Shown here one piece after another: positions 10,588-19,848 of a stretch of DNA of 23,081 nucleotides (its first letter is position 1; each line of letters starts with the position of its first letter). Origin of the DNA: a virus (taxonomy: Duplodnaviria; Heunggongvirae; Uroviricota; Caudoviricetes); the IMG/VR virus record IMGVR_UViG_2711768067_000018. One strand, 5' to 3'. The notes under the pieces are model-generated. The model was not told the origin of the DNA and ran no database searches. It saw nothing but the letters and a program-made list of their open reading frames with translations. A program made the translations under genes and the position numbers.

Positions 10588-10760
10588 TGTCAGGAGTCCT
10601 GAATAGTGATTAGAGGAGTCACATGTCGGCATCAGTTTCCCGACGATGCGCATCCTCCGCCATCAGTCCCGGATGGCTTATCACTGACACAACAGCACCT
10701 TAGCGAATCGCGGGGCGCGACTCAGTAGCCTTGCCGTGTATTCATCACGGCGAGGTATTC

Positions 10761-12533
10761 ATGACCATCACCACAGACACCACTCTTTTACACGACCCGC
10801 GTCGTCAGGCGGCGCTGCTGTACTGGCAGGGATTTTCCGTGCCGCAGATTGCCGCCATGTTGCAGATGAAACGCCCGACGGTGCAGAGCTGGAAGCAGCG
10901 CGACGGCTGGGACAGCGTTGCCCCCATCAGCCGTGTCGAAATGAGTCTGGAAGCGCGGCTGACCCAGCTCATCATCAAACCGCAGAAAACCGGCGGTGAC
11001 TTCAAGGAAATTGACCTGCTCGGACGCCAGATTGAACGACTGGCACGGGTCAACCGTTACAGTCAGACCGGCAACGAGGCAGACCTTAATCCGAACGTCG
11101 CTAACCGCAACAAAGGCGGGCGTCGCAAACCGAAAAAGAATTTTTTCAGTGACGAGGCCATCGAAAAGCTGGAGCAGATTTTCTTTGAGCAGTCTTTCGA
11201 ATATCAGTTGCACTGGTATCGCGCCGGGCTTGAGCACCGCATCCGCGATATCCTGAAATCCCGCCAGATTGGCGCGACGTTTTATTTTTCCCGCGAGGCG
11301 CTGCTGCGCGCCCTGAAAACCGGTCATAACCAGATTTTTCTGTCGGCCAGTAAAACGCAGGCGTATGTGTTCCGCGAATACATCATCGCCTTTGCCCGGC
11401 TGGTTGACGTTGACCTGACCGGTGACCCGATTGCCCTGGGCAATAACGGCGCAAAACTGATTTTTCTCGGCACCAACTCCAACACCGCACAGAGCCATAA
11501 CGGCGACCTGTACGTCGACGAGATTTTCTGGATCCCGAATTTTCAGGTACTGCGTAAGGTGGCATCAGGTATGGCCTCACAGAGTCACCTGCGCTCGACC
11601 TATTTCTCCACCCCGTCCACGCTGGCGCACGACGCCTACCCGTTCTGGTCGGGGGAGCTGTTTAACCGGGGACGCGCCAGCGCCGCTGAACGCGTGGAAA
11701 TCGACGTCAGTCATAACGCCCTTGCCGGTGGGCTTCTCTGTGCGGACGGCCAGTGGCGGCAGATTGTCACCATTGAGGACGCGCTGAAAGGCGGCTGCAC
11801 GCTGTTCGACATTGAGCAGCTCAAACGTGAAAACAGCGCCGACGATTTTAAAAACCTGTTCATGTGTGAATTTGTTGACGACAAGGCGTCGGTGTTCCCG
11901 TTCGAGGAGCTGCAACGCTGCATGGTCGACACGCTGGAAGAATGGGAAGACTATGCGCCGTTTGCCGCCAATCCGTTCGGCTCCCGCCCGGTATGGATTG
12001 GTTACGACCCGTCACACCGTGGCGACAGCGCCGGATGCGTGGTACTGGCACCGCCGGTGGTGGCCGGTGGCAAATTCAGAATACTTGAGCGTCACCAGTG
12101 GAAAGGCATGGACTTTGCCACTCAGGCTGAATCCATCCGCAAACTCACTGAAAAATACAACGTCGAATACATCGGAATTGATGCCACCGGCCTCGGTGTC
12201 GGCGTGTTCCAGCTCGTGCGCTCGTTCTATCCCGCCGCGCGCGATATCCGCTACACGCCGGAAATGAAAACCGCAATGGTGCTCAAGGCCAAAGACGTCA
12301 TCCGCCGTGGCTGTCTGGAATATGACGTCAGCGCCACCGACATCACCAGCTCGTTTATGGCTATCCGCAAGACCATGACCAGCAGCGGACGCAGCGCCAC
12401 GTATGAGGCCAGCCGCAGCGAGGAAGCCAGCCACGCCGACCTCGCCTGGGCGACCATGCACGCCCTGTTAAATGAGCCACTCACCGCCGGTATCAGCACC
12501 CCGCTGACATCCACCATTCTGGAGTTTTACTGA
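10761..12533 (+). CDS. P: Terminase ATPase (large) subunit P
   Basis: Start at ATG 10761 (MTITTDTT...), preceded by GCGAGGT; 590 aa, the size of P2 gpP. The ORF-track start at 10731 is a TTG with no RBS. Transcribed divergently from O as in P2. Confidence 0.9.
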   Translation: MTITTDTTLLHDPRRQAALLYWQGFSVPQIAAMLQMKRPTVQSWKQRDGWDSVAPISRVEMSLEARLTQLIIKPQKTGGDFKEIDLLGRQIERLARVNRYSQTGNEADLNPNVANRNKGGRRKPKKNFFSDEAIEKLEQIFFEQSFEYQLHWYRAGLEHRIRDILKSRQIGATFYFSREALLRALKTGHNQIFLSASKTQAYVFREYIIAFARLVDVDLTGDPIALGNNGAKLIFLGTNSNTAQSHNGDLYVDEIFWIPNFQVLRKVASGMASQSHLRSTYFSTPSTLAHDAYPFWSGELFNRGRASAAERVEIDVSHNALAGGLLCADGQWRQIVTIEDALKGGCTLFDIEQLKRENSADDFKNLFMCEFVDDKASVFPFEELQRCMVDTLEEWEDYAPFAANPFGSRPVWIGYDPSHRGDSAGCVVLAPPVVAGGKFRILERHQWKGMDFATQAESIRKLTEKYNVEYIGIDATGLGVGVFQLVRSFYPAARDIRYTPEMKTAMVLKAKDVIRRGCLEYDVSATDITSSFMAIRKTMTSSGRSATYEASRSEEASHADLAWATMHALLNEPLTAGISTPLTSTILEFY

Positions 12534-13567
12534 TGAGCAAGAAAAAAGGGAAAACACCGCAACCTGCGGCAAAAAAAATGACCGCCAGCGCCCCGAAAAT
12601 GGAAGCATTCACCTTTGGCGAGCCGGTACCGGTACTCGACCGCCGTGACATTCTGGATTACGTCGAGTGCATCAGTAACGGCAGATGGTATGAACCACCG
12701 GTCAGCTTTACCGGTCTGGCAAAAAGCCTGCGTGCTGCCGTGCATCACAGCTCACCGATTTACGTCAAACGTAATATTCTGGCCTCAACATTTATCCCGC
12801 ATCCGTGGCTTTCCCAGCAGGATTTCAGCCGCTTTGTGCTGGATTTTCTGGTGTTCGGTAATGCGTTTCTGGAAAAGCGTTACAGCACCACCGGTAAAGT
12901 TATCAGGCTGGAAACCTCACCGGCAAAATATACCCGCCGTGGTGTGGAAGAGGATGTTTACTGGTGGGTGCCGTCCTTCAACGAGCCGACACCTTTCGCG
13001 CCCGGCTCCGTGTTTCATCTGCTGGAGCCGGATATTAATCAGGAGCTGTACGGCCTGCCGGAATATCTCAGCGCCCTTAACTCTGCCTGGCTGAATGAGT
13101 CGGCCACGCTGTTCCGCCGCAAGTATTACGAAAACGGCGCACATGCCGGATACATCATGTACGTCACCGATGCCGTGCAGGATCGCAACGATATCGAAAT
13201 GCTTCGCGAAAACATGGTTAAGTCGAAAGGCCGCAACAACTTTAAAAATCTGTTTCTCTATGCCCCGCAGGGGAAAGCTGACGGCATTAAAATTATCCCG
13301 CTCAGTGAAGTGGCAACGAAGGACGATTTTTTTAATATCAAAAAAGCCAGCGCCGCTGACCTGCTGGACGCGCACCGCATCCCCTTTCAGTTGATGGGCG
13401 GCAAGCCGGAGAACGTCGGGTCACTGGGTGATATTGAGAAAGTGGCAAAGGTCTTTGTCCGCAATGAGCTTATCCCGTTACAGGACAGGATTCGGGAAAT
13501 AAACGGCTGGCTCGGTCAGGAGGTCATCCGCTTTAAAAACTACTCACTGGACACTGACAACGGCTGA
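12533..13567 (+). CDS. Q: Portal protein Q
   Basis: 344-aa ORF, the size of P2 gpQ; its ATG overlaps the P stop (TGATG). Confidence 0.9.
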   Translation: MSKKKGKTPQPAAKKMTASAPKMEAFTFGEPVPVLDRRDILDYVECISNGRWYEPPVSFTGLAKSLRAAVHHSSPIYVKRNILASTFIPHPWLSQQDFSRFVLDFLVFGNAFLEKRYSTTGKVIRLETSPAKYTRRGVEEDVYWWVPSFNEPTPFAPGSVFHLLEPDINQELYGLPEYLSALNSAWLNESATLFRRKYYENGAHAGYIMYVTDAVQDRNDIEMLRENMVKSKGRNNFKNLFLYAPQGKADGIKIIPLSEVATKDDFFNIKKASAADLLDAHRIPFQLMGGKPENVGSLGDIEKVAKVFVRNELIPLQDRIREINGWLGQEVIRFKNYSLDTDNG

Positions 13568-13572
13568 ACATC

Positions 13573-13594
13573 GCCGCCTGCGGGCGGCTTTTTT
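13573..13594 (+). terminator. Rho-independent terminator of the P-Q operon
   Basis: GCCGCC-TGCG-GGCGGC stem-loop followed by TTTTTT, 6 nt after the Q stop codon. Confidence 0.65.
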
Positions 13595-13736
13595 ACATCC
13601 CGCCATCACGCCCTCACACGCTCACCACCGCACAAAACACCCCGCAGACACACCAACGCCCCAGCAGGCCGACTAAATGCCATCACGACGCGCTCAGGCG
13701 CTGAAAAAATAAAATCAGCACCACCGCCTGCGCGCA

Positions 13737-13755
13737 GTGCTTTCCCCGCCTCGCC
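13737..13755 (-). other. Candidate cos cohesive-end site (19 nt)
   Basis: GTGCTTTCCCCGCCTCGCC is the reverse complement of GGCGAGGCGGGGAAAGCAC, which I recall as the P2 19-nt cohesive end; it is located just beyond Q as in P2 and is followed by a GC-rich hairpin plus T-run (13755-13778). Confidence 0.55.
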
Positions 13756-13993
13756 CGCCCGCTTCATGGGGCGGTTTTAATGCAGTTGCATAGATACTAT
13801 GGATCCGCACCAGTCCTGACCGCACGCAGCCTGAACGGACATCCCCGACGCATGCAAAAACATTCACTTGTTGCATGCAACGGCTTATTTAATGACAAAT
13901 CAACTTAAATTTACAAAATCCACAGGTATGGATACTTTGCGAACATGATAGGCTTACGAGAATTATCGAGCCTATTTTTGACCGGAGCAATGT

Positions 13994-14935
13994 ATGCAAG
14001 GTAAAGTTGACGAACAGCAATCCAATGATATTGAAGCTGAGTTTGGATACTATCCAGTAGAAGTTAACGTTGAAACTGATGATTTTTCTTTACTTACTTT
14101 ACCCGGTCTAGCGGAAAAAACAAATCTTATAAACAATCACAGAAATGTTATTAACGGTTGGATATACCCAGGAAACCAAGAAGTATATAACCTCAATGGA
14201 GGCATATCCACAATGCCTTTTAGCCAACGAGTATTTGGCTTACCCAAAACACACTCACTAAAATTAAAAAATACATCTTCACTAGAAACTCTCAATTTTG
14301 CTGTGTGGTGTCTGTCTTTTTTCAAAGGGATAAGATTAACAACTACTGATGCCGGTTTTTTAGACGCAACCCCAATAAAACCCAGCAAATTAACTGACTT
14401 TATTCTGGTCAAGTGCTCTGAAAAAGAGGTTATAGAATTAGCACTCAAATACATGTCTAGCGAGACAAAAACCAAACTCGCACCAATAAATATAGCAGCA
14501 ATAGTGCATGCACTATTTTTATCCCAAAACCCACAATACCTTAGCTTCGAAAAATTCCAGTATCTTTATATGGCACTGGATAGTTGCTTTGCTTTAACAT
14601 GGGCAGAAAAGAACAAGTGTACAGAAAAGACTCTAAATCACTCCAGGCGCTTGAAGTGGATCTGCAAAACTTATGGAATACCACGACCATCATGGGTTAC
14701 AGGCAAAAAAAACATTACAAACATCCGCAATGAAAACTTTCATGAAGCTATGTTTCATGGTCAACCACTTGGCTTTACCACTATTAACAATTATCAATAT
14801 GGAGATGACATATTACAACAAATGCAGGCTTTAATTTGCCGATTACTCGTTGCGATTCTTGGTGTTAACGCCCCCGATTACATCACATCGAACGTGAACT
14901 CTCGTGAATATCATTCACTAACATTAAAAATATAA
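13994..14935 (+). CDS. Hypothetical cargo protein (313 aa) with HEPN-like R-N-x3-H motif; candidate abortive-infection RNase
   Basis: Uninterrupted AT-rich ORF with GGAG 6 nt upstream of the ATG; motif RNENFH at residues 245-250 (nt 14726-14743); composition clearly different from the phage core. Confidence 0.6.
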   Translation: MQGKVDEQQSNDIEAEFGYYPVEVNVETDDFSLLTLPGLAEKTNLINNHRNVINGWIYPGNQEVYNLNGGISTMPFSQRVFGLPKTHSLKLKNTSSLETLNFAVWCLSFFKGIRLTTTDAGFLDATPIKPSKLTDFILVKCSEKEVIELALKYMSSETKTKLAPINIAAIVHALFLSQNPQYLSFEKFQYLYMALDSCFALTWAEKNKCTEKTLNHSRRLKWICKTYGIPRPSWVTGKKNITNIRNENFHEAMFHGQPLGFTTINNYQYGDDILQQMQALICRLLVAILGVNAPDYITSNVNSREYHSLTLKI

Positions 14936-14950
14936 AACGACTAAAAATAC

Positions 14951-14975
14951 TCTCCAGTAACAATAAGTACTGGAG
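14951..14975. terminator. Hairpin between convergent cargo genes (likely terminator, mainly for the minus-strand transcript)
   Basis: TCTCCAGTA-N8-TACTGGAGA inverted repeat (9-bp stem); a T-rich tract follows on the minus strand (tattttta). Confidence 0.45.
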
Positions 14976-15017
14976 ATGTATTATCACTAAAACCAATAAA
15001 AAATCACAACTAATGCT

Positions 15018-15617
15018 TTACTTAGATAGTTTGTCTTTAATTATATTCAGAACACCAATTATTAATTCACTGATTGGCGTGGCCAACTCAATAGTATTAG
15101 ATGTCGACTTTGTTCTAAAGTCTTTATCTGTCGGGTGTTGAAATGCTGATTTAAGAAGAGTCAAAAGCAAAGTTAAACCCACACCAAGGATGAATGCAAC
15201 AATAGCTATTAGAGAACTGGCCGATAACCAATCGGTGGATAAACCAGAAATAGATTTTCTAACTTTATTAGTGTCTGAAGATGGTGTTATCCTCTCATCA
15301 GCCATCTTCGGATCCGAAGATAAAGCAGAACATTTTTCTGCTGAAACACAAGTTTGTGTATCTACTTTTTGTGTTATCGCTGCGGCAATACTGCTTTTCG
15401 CTTCCAGCAAGCCATTTCCAACAGCCAAAGCAAAGTTAAGCCCCTGCCATAGAAATGTACAAGCAAAACAAAGCACAACGGCAGAGAGCACTAATCGCAT
15501 ACTTCTACGCTCTATACCATCCCGTCTATCTCGCCTTATAAGGATATCAGGATCTAAATCGCCCTTAGGAGTGGTTCCTTGCTCTGGGGACTGTCCAGAT
15601 AAATCAATATCAGCCAT
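15018..15617 (-). CDS. Hypothetical two-transmembrane-segment protein (199 aa); candidate membrane effector
   Basis: Two hydrophobic stretches (about residues 42-68 and 144-166) flanking a hydrophilic region, charged N-terminus; AT-rich; downstream of and co-oriented with the ImmA-like gene. Confidence 0.65.
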   Translation of the reverse strand: MADIDLSGQSPEQGTTPKGDLDPDILIRRDRRDGIERRSMRLVLSAVVLCFACTFLWQGLNFALAVGNGLLEAKSSIAAAITQKVDTQTCVSAEKCSALSSDPKMADERITPSSDTNKVRKSISGLSTDWLSASSLIAIVAFILGVGLTLLLTLLKSAFQHPTDKDFRTKSTSNTIELATPISELIIGVLNIIKDKLSK

Positions 15618-15620
15618 AAA

Positions 15621-15658
15621 AAAATCACCCTTACATGTACAAACGTAAAGGTGATTTT
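15621..15658 (-). promoter_or_regulatory. Terminator-like hairpin with U-tract that overlaps the RBS of the membrane-protein gene
   Basis: 13 of 14 bp inverted repeat AAAATCACC(C)TTAC / GTAA(A)GGTGATTTT with a 10-nt loop; on the minus strand the 3' arm (containing the GGGTGA Shine-Dalgarno-like sequence) is followed by TTTTTTT and then the ATG at 15617. Confidence 0.5.
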
Positions 15659-15683
15659 AAACAGGTTAAAAGTTAAAGGCTAA

Positions 15684-16169
15684 TTAATAAGCCATTCCTA
15701 AGCTCTTTAAGCGCCAATGCATAGCGGCTTCTGATACATTAAAGATGCTTGCTAATCTCAAAGTGCTATCAATACCTTCTCTGGATACCAATTGACGTAT
15801 AGCAGACTCAGGCATTAACAACTCAGCAGCAAACTTGTTTGCTTCAACCTCACGGTAATCACGAGCACCTGTTGAATAATTCCCGACATTATCCCGATGG
15901 TACTCTCCGTCCTGGGTATGCCCCAGCACATGATGACCTAACTCGTGTGCAACAGTAAAACGTTGACGATTAGAATGTTCACTAGAATCAAAATAAATCC
16001 TATGGACACCCTTTTTGATGACAGCCAGACCGCTTAACCCATCGTTGTTATAAGCCGATTCCTCAAGTGCTTCAACACGAGCACCCCACGCTTTAGCAAG
16101 CTTAAACGGATCGACAGGTAGTCGGCGATCCCAATAGCGGTCAAGCAGTTTTTTAGCTGCATAGCTCAT
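15684..16169 (-). CDS. ImmA/IrrE-family zinc metallopeptidase (HEXXH)
   Basis: 161-aa ORF with HELGHHVLGH (HEXXH) and a downstream EANKFAAELLMP motif typical of ImmA/IrrE (COG2856-type) peptidases; AGGAGG 5 nt upstream of the ATG. Confidence 0.85.
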   Translation of the reverse strand: MSYAAKKLLDRYWDRRLPVDPFKLAKAWGARVEALEESAYNNDGLSGLAVIKKGVHRIYFDSSEHSNRQRFTVAHELGHHVLGHTQDGEYHRDNVGNYSTGARDYREVEANKFAAELLMPESAIRQLVSREGIDSTLRLASIFNVSEAAMHWRLKSLGMAY

Positions 16170-16205
16170 GGTTGCCTCCTACGTTAAAAAAGTTAAGTAT
16201 GCACA

Positions 16206-16234
16206 GCCATATCACAGTTGTTATTTTATGTCAA
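16206..16234 (-). promoter_or_regulatory. Candidate sigma70 promoter for the ImmA-like gene
   Basis: On the minus strand: TTGACA (16234-16229), 17-nt spacer, TGaTATGGC extended -10 (16211-16206), about 35 nt upstream of the start codon. Confidence 0.5.
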
Positions 16235-16890
16235 GGCTGTTTTTCAGCCATTACTATAACACTAATCCACGTTTTCCCATAACATTTTCGACATCATATA
16301 TGCATTCAGTTCTGCATATAGAGCTTATCTTTGCTGATAACACGAGATGAATACGCGCAACCAGCCCACGATTTATAAAAAACCTTATAAATCAGAATAT
16401 TGAGTTAAAAAAACACTAACTACTTGCGCAGCGAGTTGTTAAACCTCAGCGATACTAAAAGAAAATTTCAGAGTCACCGAAGTTTCCACAGAAAACGCAA
16501 CTTAATGATTTTATTGGAATTTATGTCGCTATTTTTAATTACTTGTTTAAATCCGCCATATTGAAACTGTGCATTTCTAGCCACTCACAACTTTAAAAAA
16601 TTTACATTGCTTTCAAGACCTTATCATCCGTAGTCTCTGCTTTTTACTTTGAGCTATATCAAAAAAAGCTCAAACATCCTTGATGCAAAACCAGTATTAC
16701 ACAACATAAAATGCAACCAGAAACAACGACATACTATATGTTGTGTTGTTCAGGTCCTCTGTTCGGTGATATGCCAGATCACTTTGCGTTTAAACAGAGC
16801 ATTATTTCAGGGCAAGACTTCGCTCAATAGTCACTCCGCCTTAGAAGCGCATATATCGGCGGAAATTGCCCTCTGCTTACAGGAGGCGAT

Positions 16891-17004
16891 ATGAAGAAGT
16901 GCTATTACTGCATTCTCGTTCTGGCCCTCTTTGGCTATCCATATGGTAGTCCGAGTGGTTTGTCAGTAAACGTCAGTAATATCCATGTAAGTATTTTTCT
17001 TTAG
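16891..17004 (+). CDS. Small hydrophobic ORF (37 codons), hypothetical
   Basis: AGGAGG with a 4-nt spacer before the ATG; translation MKKCYYCILVLALFGYPYGSPSGLSVNVSNIHVSIFL; followed immediately by a strong terminator. No homology evidence available. Confidence 0.3.
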   Translation: MKKCYYCILVLALFGYPYGSPSGLSVNVSNIHVSIFL

Positions 17005-17016
17005 TATGCTTCAAAC

Positions 17017-17047
17017 AAAAAAACCACCTGCCAGGGTGGTTTTTTTG
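17017..17047. terminator. Bidirectional rho-independent terminator
   Basis: AAAAAAACCACC-TGCCAG-GGTGGTTTTTTT: stem flanked by an A-tract on one side and a T-tract on the other; located between the small plus-strand ORF and the 3' end of minus-strand gene A. Confidence 0.65.
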
Positions 17048-17306
17048 CGCCCGTCATCAATCCGATGAAAGACTAGCAAGACTTCGCTCGAGATGAATTA
17101 TGCTTCGACATAAAGTCACTCGCAATGGTTTTATTAACCGAAATAGATGCTCTTTTATGACTCGAATCAAATAGCTGCCTTCAATTACATGCTAACGATT
17201 CAATACAATTTAGCCTTCTGATTCAACACGCTATTGCTCCTCATCTACCTTAGAGGTGTTTCGCATAATCCATTCAAAGACATATAAAATCACGCTGTAT
17301 TTTTAC

Positions 17307-19583
17307 TCAAATGGATAACAAAAATCCCGGCCAATCATCAGCGACCTGATAAGTGAAAGGTTTCCCGTCATAATTTACGGTCGCGCCACGCGCCAGCGCC
17401 TCAAGCTCCCATCGTTGCGGCCTGATACCGTTCTGAGCGAGATCAACGCGGATACGGGTAATTTGCAATCGTTCCGACCGGGTCAGTCTGGCCGATGGTG
17501 CAATTTCATGCGGTTTTAACGGGCTTCCGTTTCTTTGCTGACGGTTTGGCGTTCTCCGGTCGTGTTTTAATGCGCCCCTGAGCGCCCTCACGACCTCCGG
17601 GTCATTCCATTCGATAACATCGTCATCAACCAGATTAAGCACTGCTGCGGCGTGCTCAGAAGGTGTGGGAGCCGGTAACGAAGTATCACCACCGGTGAGC
17701 TTTCCACAGTTATTGACAGGACTCCGAGGCGCGGCGATGCCGCTTTTTAAAGTCAAAGGCTCAACGACCGGAACTTTCGGCACAATGCGCCAGTCCGTCG
17801 TTCTGGTGATATGAATATGACGCGCGCCGAGATGCGGCGCGTAAATGCCGACCACTCTCTCGACTTCTTCCTCGTACTCGTTAACGTCATCCGACAGACT
17901 ACGGGCGACTCTGACAGTCTGGCAATCGCGCGGAACATTTGCCCCGCCCTGCGCGCTGATATACAGCGCAAAATCACCACTGTCTGCGGCGGCGCGTGCA
18001 GCCTCGACGCGCTCGTCAAACTCATCAGCAATGCTGACGCCGCGAGGCAATTTGCGTAGTTCACGGTAAGCCCCCATTGTCGGCAGGCCAACCGTTTTAA
18101 ATTGCGGAATGCGCCACGTTGACGCCCATGCGGTAACAGCCGCTGCAGTGTCTTTCAACGGCCTGCCGGTGTCGTTATCGAGCTGACCATCCAGTGCATA
18201 GCCGTCGATGTTTTTTGAAATGTATTTCGCGATATATCCCGCAGCACCGCCCCGGTTAAGGTGTTTTGCCTGAAAACGGTTTCGCGCGGCTCCTCTTTCG
18301 TCGCCATCCTCTTTGAGCGCATAGCGACGCATGATTTCGATAATCTGGTTACGCTGGCGTGGATGACAAAAAAGCATCATATGCCAGTGCGGCGTTCCGT
18401 CGTGGTGTGGCTCGACGACTCGCAAACCGTAGACCTGTAAATCATTATCCTTGAATGCCGTGCGCATCAGGCTCCAGATACGGCAGAGATAACGCTGCGC
18501 ATCCTTTGGATTAAATGCCTCATCGTTCCAGCCGTGATTAAGCTGAACGGTTTTACTTTCGCCTTTTCCGACCTGACGTGTCGGGTGATACTTTGACGGC
18601 GCGGTCAGCGTGATAAACATCCCCACATCACCCTCTGCGGCGGCGTAACGCTCAATACCGGCAATGGTGTTCATCAGCTCCATCCGGCGAATTTCAGGAT
18701 TAGAAATACTGCCCATCACCTTACTGATAAGGTCGATGCGCTCGCCGGTTTCCCTGTTTTCAAGGTCACACGATTTAAGAAATTCCAGATTTGCCTGGCG
18801 GCGCGCACGCACATCACGAATGGCGTGTTTACTGGCATAAGGAGAACGGTCTTTATTGACCTCCCCGACAGCTATCAGTAACGCCTCATGCCAGCGCATA
18901 CGCTGGCCTTTAAGCTGATGAGTCCACCACTCATCGTTAAACAGGCGGGCAATGGCAGAATATGCCTGCCTCGTGGTCATCTGTCCTTTACGGTATTTTT
19001 TCCAGTAGAGCGGGGAAATATTGAAAGCACGTGCAGCGCCAGCAACATGACCATACAGGTGAGCCTGCGCCTCATCCGTAAACAGCGATTCTTTTTCACC
19101 ATGCGCATCAACCCATGCATCGCAGAGTTCCTCATACATCATGAAAAGCTGCGATGAGATACGGGCGGCAAACTTTTTCAGCTCCTTGTCATTCATTCCC
19201 GGCAGGCGCGCATAGTGGTCACGCTCTGCCAGAAACAGCAACGACGCGTCGGTGTTCATTTCATGGCGCTGATTCACACGCTCAATGCGCGGCCATAAAC
19301 GACGCTGAAAAGTAGATGTGAGGAAATAAAACCCGTGCACCGGGCTTTTATTGCGCCGGATGTAGTCATAGCGTGAAGTAAACAGCGAGCGCAAAAAGTA
19401 AGGCAGGCGGTTAATCGTGGATAAAACACCTTGCACCTGACGCATCTCGTCACGTGTAAGAGGTCTTTCGCGCCCGACAGCCTCGCGTGGCGCGTTCCAT
19501 GCATAAGCACCGGTAAACGCCTTACCGGTGCCTGCGGTAAATGCTGACGGAGGGACAAAACGCCCGGAGGCTTTAACGGCCAT
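17307..19583 (-). CDS. A: Replication initiation protein A (rolling-circle nickase)
   Basis: Long ORF in the P2 gpA position; start chosen at the ATG at 19583 (MAVKASGRF...), as the ORF-track start at 19625 is a TTG. About 758 aa, close to P2 gpA. Confidence 0.9.
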   Translation of the reverse strand: MAVKASGRFVPPSAFTAGTGKAFTGAYAWNAPREAVGRERPLTRDEMRQVQGVLSTINRLPYFLRSLFTSRYDYIRRNKSPVHGFYFLTSTFQRRLWPRIERVNQRHEMNTDASLLFLAERDHYARLPGMNDKELKKFAARISSQLFMMYEELCDAWVDAHGEKESLFTDEAQAHLYGHVAGAARAFNISPLYWKKYRKGQMTTRQAYSAIARLFNDEWWTHQLKGQRMRWHEALLIAVGEVNKDRSPYASKHAIRDVRARRQANLEFLKSCDLENRETGERIDLISKVMGSISNPEIRRMELMNTIAGIERYAAAEGDVGMFITLTAPSKYHPTRQVGKGESKTVQLNHGWNDEAFNPKDAQRYLCRIWSLMRTAFKDNDLQVYGLRVVEPHHDGTPHWHMMLFCHPRQRNQIIEIMRRYALKEDGDERGAARNRFQAKHLNRGGAAGYIAKYISKNIDGYALDGQLDNDTGRPLKDTAAAVTAWASTWRIPQFKTVGLPTMGAYRELRKLPRGVSIADEFDERVEAARAAADSGDFALYISAQGGANVPRDCQTVRVARSLSDDVNEYEEEVERVVGIYAPHLGARHIHITRTTDWRIVPKVPVVEPLTLKSGIAAPRSPVNNCGKLTGGDTSLPAPTPSEHAAAVLNLVDDDVIEWNDPEVVRALRGALKHDRRTPNRQQRNGSPLKPHEIAPSARLTRSERLQITRIRVDLAQNGIRPQRWELEALARGATVNYDGKPFTYQVADDWPGFLLSI

Positions 19584-19848
19584 ATGAGCCAAAAGCCTCT
19601 GAACAACGCTTGCTGAGTTGCTCAACCTGCGCGTTTAAATCAGCAAAAGATTTTGCGCTTCCGGTCAGAATATCGTGATGCATCAGGCCGGAAACGAGCT
19701 GGCCTAATTTCGGGTAATAACCAACCACCGCCAGCCATTCCTGACCGGCGTTTTTACCGCTTTCCGCTCTCTTTTTCTCGTGGAGAATAAACTGAAAGCT
19801 GTCACTGGTAACGACATAACGTTCGCCAATTTCAATACGAATACTCAT
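19573..19848 (-). CDS. Small early protein (P2 orf83-like), hypothetical
   Basis: 91-aa ORF; its start overlaps the upstream ORF stop and its end overlaps the A start, part of the B-A operon. Confidence 0.7.
   Translation of the reverse strand: MSIRIEIGERYVVTSDSFQFILHEKKRAESGKNAGQEWLAVVGYYPKLGQLVSGLMHHDILTGSAKSFADLNAQVEQLSKRCSEAFGSYGR

Follow-up and report, generated by a model that had tools for sequence, protein, structure and literature searches.

A cargo gene of P2-like prophages encodes a putative single-protein HEPN effector with its own N-terminal domain

INTRODUCTION

Single-chain HEPN nucleases (HepS, ApeA, DARNA) are the clearest current models of a single protein that detects infection and also shuts down translation, and their triggers differ. 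HepS is a constitutive abortive-infection system that is also active when inserted at the old position of phage P2 (PMC13043305), and ApeA assembles into decamers or dodecamers, with deoxydinucleotides as its activators (bioRxiv 10.64898/2026.01.26.701840). HEPN domains are built of two α-hairpins, frequently with an insert between helices 2 and 3 (H2 and H3), and carry an R-x4-6-H motif at the end of H3, in which the arginine is followed by a polar residue (N, D or H); a second conserved acidic residue lies in H2, typically as E-x3-[KR] (Anantharaman et al. 2013, PMC3710099). Here we describe a gene at positions 13994–14935 of a 23,081-nt stretch of viral DNA (IMG/VR record IMGVR_UViG_2711768067_000018; hereafter the window), which encodes a protein of 313 amino acids (aa). 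A sequence-only reading of this DNA had noticed a HEPN-like motif in the protein and proposed a candidate abortive-infection RNase, acting either alone or together with a neighbouring peptidase and membrane protein.

The window is a P2-like prophage, and the gene lies in its gpQ–cos–gpA interval. This interval is the P2 hotspot, for which 1,650 gene arrangements have been catalogued and from which several anti-phage systems have been validated (Rousset et al., PMC9122126). The gene family appears in that survey as the one-gene 'system 11' (Table S5B; 218 loci, no annotation), the eleventh most frequent system in the E. coli P2 hotspot. Our analysis suggests, with a probability of roughly two-thirds, that the protein is a self-sufficient, single-protein HEPN anti-phage effector, an abortive-infection RNase that would be gated by its 140-residue N-terminal domain and be carried beside cos as lysogenic-conversion cargo of a P2-like prophage.

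RESULTS

A predicted HEPN fold with a family-invariant active site

The features of the gene on which the argument draws are the following.

13784–13993, + strand: 5′ leader of the module (alignment with P2 and other alleles)
13984–13987, + strand: ribosome-binding site GGAG (sequence)
13994–14935, + strand: coding sequence (CDS) of the 313-aa protein (open reading frame (ORF) call; comparison with WP_001161722.1 and ORF313)
13994–14413, + strand: N-terminal α/β domain, residues 1–140, a proposed sensor/regulator
14414–14893, + strand: predicted HEPN domain, residues 141–300
14549–14551, + strand: E186 codon; this acidic residue opens helix 2 and is invariant (113 sequences)
14726–14743, + strand: R245-N-E-N-F-H250, the R-x4-H signature at the end of helix 3 (alignment and model)
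14840–14842, + strand: R283 codon; this helix-4 arginine is invariant (alignment and model)
14951–14976, both strands: hairpin between convergent genes, at the 3′ end of the module

The motif RNENFH (residues 245–250) is the sole R-x4-6-H in the protein. Composition-preserving shuffles contain some R-x4-6-H in 46% of cases and the stricter R-[NDH]-x3-H in 2.9%. Hence the earlier caution that a short motif alone is weak evidence was borne out: in one sequence the motif is within chance, and its weight comes from invariance across the family and from the fold. Among 113 aligned homologues (26–79% identity), six residues are invariant (G112, E186, R245, H250, G260 and R283), and N246 and E251 are among those at least 90% conserved. 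When full-length homologues were searched with a regular expression, R-[polar]-x3-H was matched by 196 of 200.

An AlphaFold model computed with the 113-sequence alignment has a predicted local distance difference test score (pLDDT) of 94.7 and a predicted template modelling score (pTM) of 0.92. It shows an α/β N-terminal domain (residues ∼13–140) followed by a helical C-terminal domain with helices at residues 143–155, 163–176 (H1), 184–206 (H2), 216–227 (insert), 241–250 (H3) and 273–288 (H4). In a first AF2 model, made with 26 sequences, the motif loop had a pLDDT below 50; the 113-sequence rerun cured this. R245 to H250 occupy the C-terminal end of helix 241–250, so that R245-N246-x3-H250 closes H3. 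With this placement of the motif, an acidic residue in H2 and an extra helix between H2 and H3, the model largely matches the published description of HEPN domains (PMC3710099). One departure concerns the acidic motif: E186 opens helix 184–206, and the residue four positions on is Y190, which does not follow the E-x3-[KR] form.

The ranked list of structural matches (value in parentheses) is dominated by HEPN proteins: AF0298, 2hsb (8.2); HepT, 7ae2 (8.1); Csm6, 8jbc (7.9); YutE, 1ylm (7.9); AbiA, 8oz7 (7.7); a HEPN domain protein, 4nqf (7.7); the sacsin HEPN domain, 3o10 (7.5); and a HEPN toxin, 8xdj (7.2), with ST0689, TT1696, SO_3166 and AbiV lower down. HEPN proteins dominated the ranking in the same way with the weaker first model. 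Based on the alignment and the model, the C-terminal 160 residues very probably adopt a HEPN fold with an intact, family-invariant R-N-x3-H site. The structure prediction that the sequence-only reading had called for thus favours a HEPN-like helical fold around the motif, and the motif itself gains support from the invariance of R245 and H250.

No named HEPN family accounts for the protein

In Pfam, NCBIfam and PADLOC, no informative model matched the protein or 56 diverse relatives, apart from one sub-threshold match to HEPN_Apea. For this family (PF18739), 0 of 26 and 1 of 30 relatives gave a match, with a best E-value of 0.15, far from the curated cut-off; the window protein gave none. We rejected membership of ApeA, as there was no match to its Pfam or PADLOC models and a 313-aa protein with an α/β N-domain differs from a helical, three-domain protein of ∼580 aa. 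Abi2/AbiD/AbiF (PF07751), AbiV, AbiU2, RnlA/LsoA and Csm6/Csx1 were likewise set aside, with no match in Pfam, NCBIfam or PADLOC. For Csm6/Csx1, which carry an N-terminal CARF domain in a CRISPR context, and RnlA, which has a cognate antitoxin, there are further reasons, since the contexts of the homologues contain no CRISPR genes and no conserved partner and the N-domain is not Rossmann-like. The HEPN-MNT (type VII) toxin–antitoxin systems were rejected too, there being no conserved neighbour and no nucleotidyltransferase in the 25 most-matched Pfam families of the neighbouring proteins.

A profile search of PDB sequences with the family returned a single result, in which profile residues 243–283 (nt ∼14720–14842) align with the extreme N-terminus of E. 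coli NrdB (RNDALHEALFFDEPLGF against KNDQLKEPMFFGQPVNV, E = 0.02); we judged this match to be chance. The proposal of a HEPN RNase held as far as HEPN membership goes, and the likeness to Abi2/AbiD/AbiF, Csm6 and RnlA did not hold at the level of sequence. Membership of a named HEPN family is not supported by the sequence comparisons, which point instead to a new and as yet unnamed HEPN family that has an N-terminal domain of its own.

A second conserved block in the N-terminal domain

In the model, the strand and helix order of the N-domain is β-β-α-β-β-β-α-β-β, which is not Rossmann-like. Residues conserved in at least 90% of the family are F17, G18, P21, W56, R79, F81, T86, H87, F102, R114, G121 and D135. 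The most conserved blocks of the family are residues 96–140 and 241–262, and the mean frequency of the top residue is 0.62 in residues 96–140, the same value as in the motif block (0.62). Such conservation would be in keeping with a regulatory pocket or interface next to the active site.

The gene is a mobile one-gene cassette

The genes convergent with the 313-aa gene are two.

15018–15617, − strand: ORF of 199 aa, membrane type, with two transmembrane (TM) segments
15684–16169, − strand: M78/ImmA-IrrE peptidase of 161 aa (Pfam PF06114 at 3.8e-21; HExxH in AHELGHH)

They are convergent with the gene and separated from it by a hairpin, as had been noted; the hairpin (14951–14976) has a 9-bp stem and a terminator-like score on both strands. 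In PADLOC, the best match of the peptidase is CapP (1e-30); a helix-turn-helix or CapH-like partner is not present. The peptidase and 2-TM genes (15018–16169, − strand) are a two-gene cassette apart from the HEPN gene, and they are listed as a separate 'system 21' with 148 loci (Rousset et al., PMC9122126).

The distribution of the genes supports the independent single-gene effector and leaves the partnership proposed as its alternative unsupported. The pair is present in 47 of the 99 E. coli genomes with the gene, namely those with an allele of at least 99% identity, and absent from the other 52, which have alleles of ∼75%. In IMG/VR, only 8 of 44 loci have the pair, leaving 36 without it. 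Four viral contigs (L080–L083) carry the homologue as the sole gene between cos and gpA, ending 46–124 bp from gpA. Conversely, Peduovirus NC_070905 and some loci of Rousset et al. have the pair but lack the HEPN gene. At least four different sets of neighbours are found, among them ORF226 with ORF73/DUF2158 (P2-EC67 type), small ORFs with DinI (186-like phages) and, elsewhere, IS2 with DUF3850. Across 24 GTDB loci, any one neighbour family is found at five at most, and these five have a single mobile block in common. These data show a mobile cassette of one gene without a conserved partner.

Beyond the peptidase gene, a 1.1-kb AT-rich stretch (16170–17306) runs up to gpA; it holds no ORF longer than 81 aa and no RefSeq CDS, and an Rfam scan of 13500–17400 found nothing at or above the gathering score. 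In Peduovirus NC_070905, the stretch accompanies the peptidase and TM genes without the HEPN gene, with an identity of 95–99% over 16667–17170 and only ∼80% over 16170–16660. By this comparison, 16170–17306 is a conserved non-coding element.

Association with defence genes

We annotated 137 proteins encoded next to homologues at 21 GTDB loci. PADLOC identified Drt5, Avs3a, a CBASS phospholipase effector with JAB and E1-E2 proteins, PDC-S49, PDC-M06B and DpdC among them, and Pfam identified integrases, resolvases, gpA, conjugation proteins, and phage capsid and portal genes. In P. aeruginosa, copies of the gene share an island with DUF932 and ParB genes, and at a distance of 3 kb there is a gene for an OLD-like TOPRIM ATPase that is followed by one for a UvrD-type helicase; we take this ATPase and helicase pair to be Gabija. 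DefensePredictor (PMC13092281) lists WP_001161722.1, from which the window protein differs at one residue, as a 'Predicted novel defense gene' with a mean log-odds of 9.68, where the stringent cut-off is 4. DS-40 of DefensePredictor (311 aa) was considered as a member of the same family and rejected, as its sequence is unrelated. A role of the 313-aa protein in defence is likely.

Distribution of the family

A word-indexed search of a set of 5.8 billion proteins found 603 homologues, and an exhaustive profile search gave 642 clusters at 50% identity, 194 of them below 1e-30. The hosts include Escherichia, Salmonella, Citrobacter, Klebsiella, Enterobacter, Aeromonas, Providencia, Acinetobacter, Pseudomonas, Stenotrophomonas and Xanthomonas, and there are β- and α-proteobacterial homologues as well (Thauera, Comamonas, Shinella, Ponticaulis). 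Six plasmids carry copies. An allele of the gene is present in ∼2% of complete E. coli genomes (99/5426). Annotation is sparse: ORF313 of phage P2-EC67 (73% identity) is annotated only as hypothetical, the window protein falls in PHROGs family phrog_5937 ('unknown function'), and a literature search by accession or by the phage name P2-EC67 returned nothing on the family.

P2/186-like elements account for 41 of the 44 IMG/VR loci, and the gene usually lies 405–443 bp after the portal stop codon. The IMG/VR alleles at this cos-proximal slot (L043–L086) fall into discrete identity classes of 99–100, 77–79, 72–74, 69, 58, 48–50 and 40–46%. Three of the most divergent (L084–L086) are on viral contigs of 52–58 kb without a P2-type portal or gpA; therefore, the gene also occurs in other types of phage. 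In Xanthomonas, Achromobacter, Albidiferax and Thauera (L023, L024, L026, L029, L034), one and the same multi-gene block surrounds the homologue, and up to seven neighbour families are in common, which indicates one mobile element moving between β- and γ-proteobacteria.

Expression signals and composition

The ORF begins with ATG, and the GGAG ribosome-binding site lies 6 nt upstream of it. G+C content is 0.34–0.40 over 13800–15400, compared to 0.51–0.60 in the flanking phage genes. The description of the gene as an AT-rich ORF with a good ribosome-binding site was therefore confirmed. A promoter-like site, ATGACA-16-CAAAAT, is seen at 13892–13919 in a consensus scan, by which such sites are not enriched over shuffles. 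The leader (13784–13993, 210 bp) is 97% identical between P2-type alleles whose CDSs share only 72–76%, and the sequence 3′ of the stop codon is unrelated between alleles. Conservation of the leader points to strong constraint on a regulatory region or else to a recombination flank for allele swaps.

The prophage and its hotspot

Phage genes on both sides place the gene in the prophage.

10731–12533: terminase gpP
12533–13567: portal gpQ
17307–19625, − strand: replication protein gpA
right end of the window: integrase

A near-identical prophage adjoins cpxP in E. coli, with 99.9% identity over the 3.1-kb hotspot stretch 13600–16700. The cos 19-mer, GTGCTTTCCCCGCCTCGCC on this strand, is at 13737–13755 and is shared with phage P2 in the alignment; the tQ terminator hairpin 3′ of the portal gene (13573–13588) is also conserved with P2. 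Homology to the P2 backbone stops at ∼13783, just past cos. Given this end point and the placement of cos, it follows that the gene has the position and orientation of P2 old: it reads away from cos and has its own upstream region. Like other cargo of the P2 hotspot, it lies between gpQ/cos and gpA, varies among phages and forms an autonomous cassette.

DISCUSSION

A proposed mechanism

If the protein is indeed a self-sufficient HEPN effector, its mechanism can be modelled by analogy with HepS, ApeA, DARNA and PrrC, together with RNase L mutagenesis; the work on PrrC and RNase L is summarised in PMC3710099. The gene's own conserved leader would drive constitutive production of the protein in the lysogen. 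Two R-x4-H motifs would come together as composite sites in HEPN dimers or larger oligomers, and the protein would stay latent until the N-domain senses an infection cue, perhaps a phage protein or a ligand derived from nucleic acid. It would then cleave cellular RNA without metal, tRNA anticodon loops being the most likely target, so that translation stops and infection aborts. Both target and trigger are speculative here.

Several observations count against this picture of a gated defence RNase. Searches of Pfam, NCBIfam and PADLOC and the profile search of PDB give no sequence-level link to a named HEPN family, and Foldseek returned no significant match in PDB. The N-domain could have a catalytic role of its own, instead of a purely sensory one, because it is conserved as strongly as the catalytic block. 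Some homologues lie among housekeeping genes, for example beside an AlkZ-like gene in Aeromonas. Finally, we found no cloned or tested member of the family when its accession and peptide were compared with the tables of tested or validated systems in PMC9122126 and PMC13092281.

Alternative explanations

The missing profile matches, the empty Foldseek search and the frequency of R-x4-6-H in shuffles are what one would expect if the motif arose by chance in a protein that is not HEPN; given the invariant motif and the confidently modelled fold, we consider this extremely improbable. More weight goes to the idea that a genuine HEPN fold serves another role, such as phage counter-defence or RNA processing for P2, or that the N-domain is the enzyme and the HEPN domain a module for binding RNA or nucleotides. 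Block 96–140 is as conserved as the motif block and the N-domain has near-invariant polar residues (R79, T86, H87, R114, D135), and some HEPN domains are non-catalytic (PMC3710099). However, those domains have lost R-x4-6-H, which is invariant here. The gene is also dispensable and variable among P2-like phages, and it occurs beside defence genes in chromosomal and plasmid contexts outside phages, making such a role unlikely.

The HEPN domain might instead be a toxin that stabilises the prophage or island by addiction, following toxin–antitoxin logic, and not primarily a sensor of phage. Mobile elements bear the gene and HepT toxins of HEPN-MNT systems are among the nearest structural matches, but neither the 24 GTDB loci nor the 44 IMG/VR loci have a conserved adjacent gene fit to be an antitoxin, and contigs L080–L083 leave no space for one. 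Moreover, MNT and other nucleotidyltransferases are absent from the 25 most-matched Pfam families of the 137 neighbour proteins, and the extra 140-residue domain is typical of self-regulated single-chain effectors. An addiction module is, in our estimate, quite unlikely. The remaining alternative, a three-gene system in which, for example, the M78 protease licenses the nuclease or a membrane effector, is largely refuted by the distribution of the genes and is very improbable. What speaks for it is that the pair accompanies all 47 E. coli alleles of at least 99% identity, that all three genes occupy the same hotspot, and that M78 peptidases, such as the CapP to which this one is closest in PADLOC, regulate other defence systems. 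This co-occurrence, however, is that of one near-clonal haplotype; the gene and the pair are each found alone, as described above, and homologues outside enterobacteria have no such neighbours. In addition, the genes converge on a bidirectional hairpin, and Rousset et al. scored them as distinct systems (218 versus 148 occurrences).

Significance

The reading of the gene as a single-protein HEPN effector gives point mutants that can be tested (R245A, H250A and E186A) and singles out a compact domain as the candidate sensor. More tentatively, the family might constitute an undescribed single-protein immune system, in which the N-domain would act as a novel kind of sensor for infection whose block 96–140 forms a pocket for a ligand or protein against the HEPN domain and switches on the RNase allosterically; such a system would be widespread in Proteobacteria (∼640 clusters) and among the commonest cargoes of P2-like prophages. 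The gene occurs across γ-, β- and α-proteobacteria, yet it has no functional name in Pfam, NCBIfam, PADLOC or PHROGs. Since defence-annotation tools miss it, P2-type prophages that carry it are scored as defence-less or as only partly annotated. HEPN proteins are what a specialist would expect in the P2 hotspot, which limits the surprise; the finding is of value in that it annotates an abundant cargo and adds another compact sensor-plus-HEPN protein.

Comparison with known systems

P2 Old shares with this protein its slot and orientation by cos and the status of lysogenic-conversion cargo, and has a promoter of its own pointing away from cos. It is a 586-aa protein with an ABC-ATPase and a TOPRIM nuclease, unrelated in fold and chemistry; Old was recently reported to act as a tRNase. 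DARNA differs in the position of its catalytic histidine, H122 (mutated in H122A), compared to H250 here (bioRxiv 10.64898/2026.02.22.705581), and no Pfam or PADLOC model of DARNA, AbiD/AbiF (Abi_2), AbiV or AbiA-HEPN matches the protein.

The minimal HEPN toxins and HEPN-T proteins (HepT 7ae2, 5yep and 8xdj; AF0298 2hsb; YutE 1ylm) have 120–150 aa, an MNT antitoxin and a sequence identity of 3–12%, whereas the 313-aa protein has no MNT partner and an added N-domain. ApeA, a system of Gao 2020 (PF18739), is like it a one-gene system that has a C-terminal HEPN domain preceded by N-terminal regulatory domains, and likewise occurs by itself in hotspots of P2 and P4. Among the named families it alone has an echo at the sequence level, consisting of one UniRef name and the one sub-threshold Pfam match. 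In contrast to the protein described here, ApeA is mainly helical, with ∼580 aa in three domains (N, Mid and a split HEPN with insertions; bioRxiv 10.64898/2026.01.26.701840). HepS, from the Gifsy-1 prophage of Salmonella (PMC13043305), is likewise a prophage-encoded single-protein HEPN with a canonical R-x4-H and no partner gene. By its description, HepS is a bare HEPN domain of less than 250 aa that forms a tetramer and has its motif at R100–H105, whereas the present protein has an extra 140-residue α/β N-domain and its motif at 245–250. The closest described relatives are, therefore, HepS in function, ApeA in architecture, and the minimal HepT/HEPN-T domains in structure.
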